A stretch of DNA of 1,570 bases, from the sequence record OR845833.1. One strand, given 5' to 3'. The DNA is from Escherichia phage ECO95 1-6-1. The position numbers and the translations under genes were made by a program. Positions 307 through 618 of the stretch are shown here, piece after piece (the stretch's first letter is position 1; each line of letters begins with the position of its first letter). A model generated the notes under the pieces. The model was not told where the DNA came from, did no database searches, and saw only the letters and a list, made by a program, of their open reading frames with translations.

Positions 307-335
307 GAAAAAGCGACTTTAGTGGTCGCTTTTTG
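307..335. terminator. bidirectional rho-independent terminator between convergent genes
   Basis: Perfect stem AGCGAC (312-317) / GTCGCT (325-330) with a 7-nt loop, extendable by A:T pairs from the flanking A-run (308-311) and T-run (331-334). On the + strand the hairpin is followed by TTTTT; on the minus strand it is followed by the complementary T-run. It lies between the stop of the + ORF (271) and the stop of the minus ORF (353). Confidence 0.6.
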
Positions 336-352
336 TGTCATATATAAGTCGT

Positions 353-577
353 TTAAGTAAACCTGTCTGAACAGGTGCTCTGGTCGTGTTTGTCTTTGTT
401 GGGTACAAATTGAGAATATTTTTCATTAATTAATCTTCTTCTGCAGGCTTCAATAACCCACGCTGAAAAATTACCTGAACCTTTCTGGTCAAGAGCGATG
501 TTAATTTGTTCAATCATCTGGTTTGGAAATCGGATGTTGCGGGTTGTTGTTCTGCGGGGCCGGTTTTTCGATGACAT
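353..577 (-). CDS. ribbon-helix-helix (Arc/MetJ/CopG-like) DNA-binding protein; putative moron-encoded regulator
   Basis: 74-aa ORF with ATG (complement of 575-577) preceded by a strong Shine-Dalgarno AGAGGAAAG (complement of 581-589) at about 7 nt spacing. The translation has a basic N-terminal tail, then RNIRFP (beta-strand with alternating pattern, as in Arc FNLRWP), helix NQMIEQINIALDQKG, a G-x-N-x-S turn, and helix FSAWVIEACRRRL, which is the RHH layout. Region is about 40% GC against about 56% for the adjacent HNH gene (hand count). Ends at the bidirectional terminator. Confidence 0.6.
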   Translation of the reverse strand: MSSKNRPRRTTTRNIRFPNQMIEQINIALDQKGSGNFSAWVIEACRRRLINEKYSQFVPNKDKHDQSTCSDRFT

Positions 578-618
578 TTTCTTTCCTCTGGTGACAAGCT
601 ATATGGCGAGGATTTTAC

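Follow-up and report, generated by a model that had tools for sequence, protein, structure and literature searches.

The stretch of DNA analysed in the present work, referred to below as the window, comprises 1,570 nucleotides of Escherichia phage ECO95 1-6-1 (OR845833.1) and contains, on its minus strand, a 74-aa open reading frame that starts with ATG and is flanked by genes that all lie on the plus strand. These are a gene for a PerC-family regulator on the 3' side of the antisense frame and, on its 5' side, genes for an HNH endonuclease and the small terminase subunit TerS (Table 1), which confirms the opposite-strand placement reported in a preliminary description of the sequence. The antisense gene and the HNH gene are divergent, with 41 bp between their start codons. 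In prophage L001, which is 99.3% identical, the gene that corresponds to the PerC-family gene is annotated as a "PerC family transcriptional regulator" of 104 aa (5957-6271).

Table 1. Features of the window (nucleotide positions counted from its first letter; a point marks features not assigned to one strand).
Feature	Position	Strand	Basis
PerC-family (pch-like) transcriptional regulator, 3' part	1..271	+	Pfam PerC 91.2 bits; truncated by the left edge of the window
Bidirectional intrinsic-terminator-like hairpin	308..334	.	10-nt arms 308-317/325-334, 100% complementary, 7-nt loop
YlcI/YnfO-family (DUF3950) gene, 74 aa	353..577	-	Matches to DUF3950, YlcI_YnfO_N and phrog_949; identical to the RefSeq protein in L001
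Lineage-specific C-terminal tail coding region	353..442	-	Homology of relatives starts at 443 or 435; many unrelated tails
Conserved functional core, codons 1-50	428..577	-	Near-invariant in 120 homologues; dN/dS 0.03-0.08; AF2 model; hhalign register with Arc
Shine-Dalgarno sequence AGAGGA of the ylcI-like gene	584..589	-	Direct reading; GAGG at 588-585, 7 nt 5' of ATG
Candidate -10 hexamer TAAAAT, leftward	612..617	-	Putative, from direct reading; weak -35
HNH endonuclease gene, packaging module	619..984	+	Pfam HNH 28.3 bits; phrog_589; annotated likewise in L001 and L002
Non-coding HNH-TerS interval, GC-rich then AT-rich	985..1272	.	Presumed cos, from its position
Small terminase gene TerS (Terminase_2 family), 5' part	1273..1570	+	Pfam Terminase_2 37.6 bits; phrog_641

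The antisense protein scores 70.6 bits against the Pfam family DUF3950 (PF13132), for which the cut-off is 25, and 35.7 bits against the NCBIfam model YlcI_YnfO_N (NF041551), for which the cut-off is 30, and it matches phrog_949, a PHROG of unknown function, with 109.8 bits (E = 8.9e-32). By the curated thresholds it is a member of the YlcI/YnfO (DUF3950) family, and these profile matches supply the named family that the preliminary description had been unable to assign. The full window is matched at 99.3% by a prophage of E. coli NZRM3614, in which RefSeq lists, in this order, a PerC family regulator, a YlcI/YnfO family protein, an HNH endonuclease and a terminase small subunit, and the RefSeq-annotated YlcI/YnfO protein is identical to the 74-aa protein of the window. 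The gene is real and already annotated, and is a known feature of an ordinary kind. No credible match to the PADLOC defence models was obtained for it, and no match to Rfam. The YlcI/YnfO family appears among the uncharacterised genes of K-12 (PMC11551758), and a literature search on ylcI, ynfO and DUF3950 returned listings of the genes, with no functional study found.

Residues 1-50 of the protein are almost invariant among 120 homologues, beyond which the homologues continue into many unrelated tails. The conserved core is laid out as a basic N-terminal arm (KNRPRRTTTR), a putative beta-strand (NIRFP), a first helix (residues ~19-32), an NFS turn and a second helix (residues 37-50+), and the window protein carries the core motif of the family, which is K/R-x-IRFP, a helix, and NFSAWV-x-EAC. 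When codons 1-50 are compared between lineages (the window type, the lambda type, the Qin type, BP-4795 and another HNH-type copy), dN/dS is 0.03-0.08, with dS at 0.9-2.0 and dN near 0.05, and this purifying selection contrasts with flanks that bear no relation to one another from lineage to lineage. At 35-45% identity, distant homologues still show the protein motif where DNA similarity is absent, and the columns I15, R16, F37, S38, V41 and A44, all of which occur in the window protein, are invariant among them. The combination of a low dN/dS at a nearly saturated dS with the retention of the motif in distant homologues excludes a chance open reading frame, and the dN/dS over codons 1-50 also largely rules out that this DNA is a linker or an antisense RNA only.

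The gene was originally described as a "moron-like" insert, and conserved synteny among its relatives was named at the same time as the observation that would speak against this label. Matches to the window occur in 4175 of 5426 complete E. coli genomes (about 77%), at up to 12 places per genome, and the commonest shared piece in the sampled rows is window 443-577, which corresponds to the first 45 codons of the gene (135 bp). The N-terminal part of the gene is contained in each of the 81 phage records with a coverage of 80% or more of a 443-1270 query, and among close relatives it is missing only from prophages in which an IS element has replaced that side. Phage lambda, 434, HK629/630, imm21 and DE3 carry a lambda-type copy on the minus strand, which in lambda occupies the complement of 48109..48303 in NC_001416, has its ATG 199 bp from the right end of the genome and is unannotated in that reference record; its identification with the "orf-64" of the literature was considered and rejected, because orf-64 is lambdap73, which lies between Q and S. 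A single gene order holds for the Qin prophage of K-12 and for four further prophages that were sampled over the E. coli ranking: the lysis genes come first and are followed by variable cargo (bor/iss, DUF1398, IS3 and small ORFs), antisense ylcI, an interval of ~390 bp, TerS and TerL. The antisense slot before TerS is common to the window, BP-4795, lambda, Qin and the four prophages, although these have different TerS types; the rule is an empirical regularity from the present analysis and lies outside the curated definition of the family. Apart from the IS-disrupted prophages, absence was seen only in Salmonella phage FSL SP-016, a distant relative of the HNH-TerS-TerL module. Because synteny is conserved across the close relatives, and because the same slot is filled in lambda, Qin and DLP12-type prophages, the description of the ylcI-like gene as a "moron" is not upheld and should be dropped.

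What is exchanged at this locus is a part of the gene together with its 3' surroundings. The homology of relatives ends at 435-443, inside the gene, which marks a recurrent mosaic breakpoint, and at the other side the lambda-type homology ends at the ATG, the regions upstream of which have no common sequence. The segment 272-442, which contains the tail and the hairpin, occurs in 673 genomes, mostly STEC, with a median of 3 copies, and the whole window in 258 genomes only. The PerC-family gene is absent from the BP-4795-type relatives, whose homology begins at 443, and is part of the exchangeable cargo region that extends from the lysis genes to cos. Judged by these distributions, the tail and the terminator travel with the cargo region and not with the packaging module, and the true cargo in the window is the PerC-family gene, the tail and the terminator. 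Since breakpoints occur on both sides of the core, the core can be regarded as an anchor that has exchangeable cargo on its 3' side and, on its 5' side, the exchangeable block of the packaging module.

The signals around the gene agree with the preliminary description in every sequence detail. The strong Shine-Dalgarno sequence noted there is present, the minus-strand sequence ahead of the start being CCAGAGGAAAGAAA followed by ATG, and the hand counts of base composition were accurate: the GC content of the open reading frame is 40.4%, against 55.7% for the HNH gene and 56.0% for the sequenced part of TerS, and it is 34.6% in the intergenic region 272-352. The composition and punctuation are in these respects moron-like. 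The hairpin that had been described as a bidirectional terminator lies 36 nt past the PerC stop codon and 18 nt past that of the ylcI-like gene, and it has perfectly complementary arms with a GC core (GCGAC/GTCGC). Because an A-run and a T-run flank this core, a hairpin followed by a U-tract is read on each strand. For the minus strand the predicted RNA fold has an energy of -12.3 kcal/mol (z = -3.6) and for the plus strand one of -14.7 kcal/mol (z = -2.9), and for each strand 1 of 200 shuffles folded equally well; a simple consensus terminator scan of the window did not call it. The hairpin probably acts as a terminator for both strands. No open reading frame lies between the stop codon of the gene and the hairpin, which bears out the earlier observation that no toxin partner follows on the same strand.

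Signals for the initiation of transcription are less distinct, the sequence scan giving only a weak consensus match for a promoter of the ylcI-like gene. The candidate -10 hexamer lies between the Shine-Dalgarno sequence of the HNH gene (GAGG, 608-611) and the HNH ATG (619) and is retained in a copy of the locus that is 95% identical (L089), and what the consensus promoter scan lists instead is a minus-strand site at 707..679 that matches at 9/12. A search for operators upstream of the gene found no convincing repeats, and the upstream regions of the HNH-type and lambda-type copies have nothing in common except one 8-mer at chance level. For K-12, the transcripts of ylcI and ybcW are reported to run convergently and to overlap in at least 50% of RNA-seq samples (PMC12288877). 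By analogy with these K-12 transcripts, and given the Shine-Dalgarno sequence and the hairpin, the gene in the window may well be transcribed independently, although this line of argument is indirect.

The preliminary description also classed the protein as RHH, and this assignment proves to be likely while falling short of proof. An AF2 model of the monomer, computed from a 25-sequence alignment, has a mean pLDDT of 67 and predicts helices at residues 19-32 and 37-55, with residues 1-18 forming a basic coil; such a model resembles an RHH protomer without its partner, in which the strand would be expected only in the dimer. In profile searches of the PDB, a CopG-family RHH protein is the first or second match (E = 0.5-0.8). 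Arc-family profiles were built for the present work from an Arc query, which was confirmed by matches named P22 Arc with PF03869, and in comparisons with them hhalign places "TRNIRFPNQMIEQINIAL" against "PQFNLRWPKEVLDLVRKV" in the same register every time. The E-values against Arc/Mnt/AmrZ are 0.0031 and 0.0021 with full alignments, and core-trimmed short-loop alignments give an E-value of 8.2e-5 and a probability of 61%. When a family HMM was run against 12 RHH proteins, Arc and the Arc-like AmrZ came out at the top with empirical p-values of 0.009 and 0.011 (4800 shuffles), and non-RHH controls scored at background. Structure searches were uninformative, as Foldseek of the AF2 model returned 0 matches in the PDB and nothing under an E-value of 3 in BFVD, and when 28 members were scanned permissively against Pfam for RHH families that recur, DUF3950 alone came up. 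Taken as a whole, these comparisons make an Arc-like RHH fold for the product of codons 1-50 likely, and we hold it with good confidence.

Homologues of the gene also occur outside phages with a packaging module of this kind. A search of one genome per species found true homologues in Enterobacterales only, and at 17-22 of 39 such loci, as defined by clustering the neighbouring proteins, the gene lies in an island that runs from integrase through AntA/Rha and AlpA to a primase-helicase. These islands are P4-like or PICI-type satellites, and cf-PICIs of Enterobacter are also recorded in a published survey as carrying a YlcI/YnfO protein (PMC13612085). The satellite homologues are oriented towards alpA and away from the primase operon, on the strand opposite to all of their neighbours, and reference packaging and lysis proteins of E. 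coli had no match among the neighbours of the distant homologues. Two diverged homologues, P0188 and P0224, are fusions of DUF3950 with the DNA-binding segment from the N-terminus of a Terminase_2 TerS; both are complete open reading frames in the satellite slot, and they are 44% identical to each other. Residues 2-54 of the window TerS are 64-66% identical to the C-terminal half of P0224 and 61-63% identical to that of P0188, while the TerS-like half of P0224 is 53% identical to the satellite's own TerS. A search of viral contigs for more fusions found only unfused relatives of P0188, and none for P0224. A piece of 67 nt in the window (about 994-1058) has 82% identity to the DNA immediately 5' of a satellite's own TerS. 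In E. coli CP027459 a satellite is inserted in the terL gene of a helper that has the same Rz, ylcI, HNH, TerS module as the window, and the open reading frame adjacent to its integrase corresponds to TerL residues 1-92 at 95% identity, an arrangement that fits the "helper-embedded satellites" of Tommasini et al. The fusions to a TerS DNA-binding domain hint, at the level of sequence, at a link between the family and packaging.

The interpretation that we prefer, and consider on balance probable, is that the gene encodes a small, probably dimeric, Arc-like DNA-binding regulator of the prophage state that is expressed from its own leftward unit. The first ~50 residues would form an Arc-like RHH protomer, and the dimer would contact DNA through a two-stranded beta-ribbon, with N14, R16 and the basic N-terminal arm as the putative contacts. 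The gene would be read leftward from its own start signals, against the direction of the late operon, as far as the hairpin at 308-334, which would also terminate the convergent PerC gene. Because such a leftward unit opposes the late operon, the protein would be made while the late operon is silent: the gene would be on in the prophage state, and off once Q-modified polymerase reads through from pR'. The constant linkage of the gene to cos/TerS and the satellite fusions to the DNA-binding domain of TerS suggest that the protein may act on the packaging region or machinery, be it that of its own element or that of a competing one. A narrower form of this proposal holds that YlcI/YnfO is an Arc-like factor of prophages and satellites that acts on packaging initiation by binding the cos-terminase region or TerS, and that it controls or blocks its own phage, related superinfectors or satellites. 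We regard this narrower form as speculative and unlikely; if it were true, the satellite DUF3950-TerS(N) fusions would be Rpp-like hijackers of helpers that have a TerS of the Terminase_2 type found in the window, and the unannotated lambda copy, 199 bp from the right end of the genome, would be a packaging-conflict gene.

Several other explanations must be weighed against the preferred one. If the gene were a classical moron, it would be an acquired, self-expressed cassette in the late operon, with host targets in the lysogen and no role for the phage. Its antisense orientation, its own Shine-Dalgarno sequence and hairpin and its GC content of 40% against 56% in its neighbours agree with this, as do its position beside bor/iss, PerC and DUF1398 genes in the interval from the lysis genes to cos, a known hot-spot for cargo, and the existence of a distant packaging-module relative without it. 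We nevertheless consider this improbable, because the gene is present in all close relatives of the module and occupies the same slot in lambda-type, Qin-type and other prophages whatever cargo adjoins it, the purifying selection on codons 1-50 is far above the expectation for dispensable cargo, homologues occur in satellites that have no late operon of this kind, and the unit that is swapped is the tail, the terminator and PerC rather than the entire gene. The division into a conserved head and a variable tail could also be that of an antitoxin, with an RHH head and a tail that binds a downstream partner such as the DUF1398 proteins YdfO/YbcV, and the copy in the window would then be an orphan. 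A DUF1398 gene does lie downstream of the ylcI-like gene in other lineages; in the window, however, the gene is followed after 18 nt by the hairpin and has no partner, the copies in lambda, BP-4795 and satellites are also without an adjacent partner, no literature report of DUF1398 as a toxin was found, and the tails vary in length and resemble read-through beyond the breakpoint, all of which makes an antitoxin-like function distinctly unlikely.

The invariance of the slot beside cos/TerS, together with the satellite fusion to the TerS DNA-binding domain, might instead indicate a late packaging accessory protein that binds close to cos and on which terminase depends, or from which it profits, in lytic growth. 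Transcription head-on to the late operon is the wrong layout for a late gene, however, and FSL SP-016 has the same HNH-TerS-TerL module without the gene; the known components from which packaging by lambda has been reconstituted include no factor of this sort, and we think it very unlikely that the protein serves in this way. It is also conceivable that the conserved 135-150 bp act as a patch of DNA homology for the exchange of cargo, or as an antisense RNA against the late transcript, and that the open reading frame is incidental. Although breakpoints do recur at both edges of the patch (~435-443 and the ATG), and the ylcI transcript of K-12 does overlap a convergent one, the protein has hardly changed at a nearly saturated dS of 0.9-2.0, the distant homologues keep the motif where no DNA similarity is left, and an Rfam match is absent, so that we give this explanation hardly any credence. 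The regulator of the prophage state is accordingly retained as the preferred reading.

The significance of these results lies more in the family as a whole, including the unannotated copy in lambda, than in the locus of the window, the interest of which is modest. YlcI/YnfO is one of the most widespread E. coli prophage genes of unknown function, and it is under strong purifying selection and fixed beside cos in lambda-like prophages. Its core forms the fixed right-hand edge of a cargo hot-spot in which genes related to virulence, PerC/pch and bor/iss among them, are exchanged. Because the lambda copy is unannotated in the reference record, it has been left out of at least one gene-by-gene screen of lambda, and the satellite fusions to the DNA-binding domain of a helper TerS provide a concrete and cheap hypothesis for lambda genetics.

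The nearest known relatives of the window gene are ylcI (DLP12) and ynfO (Qin) of K-12, which belong to the same family, encode proteins ~90% identical to the window protein over the first 50 residues, and occupy the same antisense slot, with the lysis/cargo genes on one side and the small terminase gene on the other. The window protein differs from them in its C-terminal tail, INEKYSQFVPNKDKHDQSTCSDRFT, and its gene is followed on the 3' side directly by the hairpin, where the K-12 genes are followed by a DUF1398 gene. The packaging module in the window is of the HNH and Terminase_2 type and those of the K-12 loci are of the Nu1/NohA type, and the gene and its divergent neighbour have start codons that lie 41 bp apart in the window but ~390 bp apart in the K-12 loci. 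Arc and Mnt of Salmonella phage P22 (PF03869) are likewise phage-encoded, and their working part of ~50 aa has the size of that of the window protein. The "NIRFP + helix" of the window protein is in register with the "NLRWP + helix A" of Arc, so that N14 and R16 fall on N11 and R13, which are base-contacting residues of Arc; the match to Arc/Mnt is, however, below standard significance thresholds for sequence and structure, the turn motif is NFS in the window protein and RSxNSE in Arc/Mnt, and the window gene is cos-proximal while Arc/Mnt lie in immI.

Similarities of a looser kind exist with three further systems. TerI of Listeria phage phi10403S (TERi) is a protein of 65 aa that is encoded on the opposite strand to the lytic operon, is made in lysogeny from its own promoter and targets TerS (bioRxiv 10.1101/2025.02.27.640495), and it thus provides a precedent for a small antisense-encoded prophage protein that can act on TerS. 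Its gene layout is like that of ylcI by description and not by sequence, and it lies in the early lytic module rather than beside cos. Rpp of the E. coli PICIs copies the DNA-binding domain of the helper TerS, adds a dimerisation domain and redirects packaging (PMC6739421). The satellite DUF3950-TerS(N) fusions may follow the same logic, a likeness by analogy that concerns the fusions and not the window gene. Rpp combines a winged-HTH copy of a Nu1-type TerS with a C-terminal coiled coil, whereas the fusions combine an N-terminal DUF3950 with a Terminase_2-type domain and, unlike Rpp, are located in the satellite regulatory zone; the idea that Rpp is itself a DUF3950 protein was rejected, since it is a winged HTH. 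Finally, bor of lambda and the other morons between the lysis genes and cos share with ylcI the neighbourhood, the antisense orientation and the low GC content, but the presence of bor/iss varies between relatives, while that of the ylcI core does not.

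The start codons of the ylcI-like gene and the HNH gene diverge and are separated by only 41 bp (window 578-618). Both Shine-Dalgarno sequences and a candidate -10 element for ylcI are crowded into this gap, so that rightward late transcription would collide there with leftward initiation.

The junction to the left of the ylcI-like gene is occupied by a pch-like regulator gene of the PerC family (see table). Pch proteins activate the LEE genes in EHEC. Since BP-4795-type relatives lack the PerC-family gene, it is this gene that forms the true exchangeable cargo of the junction. 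From its position, the hairpin at 308-334 would terminate the PerC-family gene as well. In match H200 (NZ_AP042674.1, a 65.7 kb record), a 100% identical copy of the initial 77 bp of the intergenic/terminator segment (window 272-348) neighbours a gene annotated as the T3SS effector NleH; several cargo genes may have this terminator segment beside them.

Coordinates of the genes and matches discussed in the text
Feature	Location	Strand	Details
PerC-family regulator gene, pch-like	window 1-271; L001 (near-identical prophage) 5957-6271	+	104 aa
YlcI/YnfO homologue of phage lambda	L004 3110-3304 = NC_001416 complement 48109..48303	-	64 aa
DUF3950-TerS fusion gene, satellite	L089 5001-5363	+	
DUF3950-TerS fusion gene, satellite	L088 4714-5103	+	
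DUF3950-TerS fusion genes, satellites	L090, L091, L092		
Second, unfused DUF3950 gene of the L089 satellite	L089 4590-4772	+	60 aa
Satellite integrase and adjoining TerL-like ORF	L089 5641-7321		
Weak DUF3950-like match, Pasteurella element Pmp7	L094 4001-4159	+	40% identity, E 2e-5

The homologue in phage lambda lies 199 bp from the right cohesive end. It is not annotated in the RefSeq lambda record, in which lambdap79 is the final gene listed, and for this reason a CRISPRi table of essentiality compiled gene by gene (PMC10695390) does not include it. Lambda-type copies with 89-94% identity to the window protein occur in L010-L036, L038-L041, L043, L049 and L061, on contigs of roughly 3.5 kb or 48.5 kb from assemblies of unrelated organisms, including Kitasatospora, Cohnella, Flavobacterium, an Arcanobacterium “plasmid” and others. 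These copies look like contamination with lambda control DNA. The protein collections also include many frameshifted “proteins” that come from ENA contigs of about 3.5 kb, and these too look like reads of that control. In the record of Campylobacter phage CJLB-4 (MW057783.1, 48361 bp), a lambda-type copy with 100% identity lies close to the end, at a distance of 138 bp; lambda likewise has its copy near an end. The record may be lambda, or may include lambda sequence.

Tatumella, Pantoea and Salmonella arizonae/diarizonae have homologues (L046, L052, L054, L062, L079, L082, L084, L044 and L045) whose neighbours, judged by sequence alone, look chromosomal, resembling membrane-protein, ABC-transporter and aminotransferase ORFs. 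There are no phage or satellite genes within 4 kb of them. They may be isolated domesticated copies. In Pmp7, a satellite-like element of 10.7 kb, the match runs antisense to a gene whose annotation is “transcriptional repressor”; it may reflect chance, or an ORF that the annotation has missed.

In satellites, two diverged proteins, P0224 (120 aa) and P0188 (129 aa), consist of a DUF3950 domain fused to the DNA-binding segment from the N-terminus of a small terminase of the Terminase_2 type, and in the L089 satellite the fusion gene is in tandem with the unfused one. With the helper-type TerS of the window P0224 shares 64-66% identity, versus 53% with the satellite's own TerS. It is possible that P0224 and P0188 are Rpp-like packaging hijackers. 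Between HNH and TerS, a 67-nt piece (window 994-1058) is 81-82% identical to L089 723-789 and L091 479-546, where the matching DNA closely precedes the satellite's own TerS; the piece may be a cos element common to the window and the satellites. The ORF directly adjoining the L089 integrase corresponds to TerL residues 1-92 (95% identical), which places this satellite inside terL of its helper prophage, in agreement with published helper-embedded satellites.
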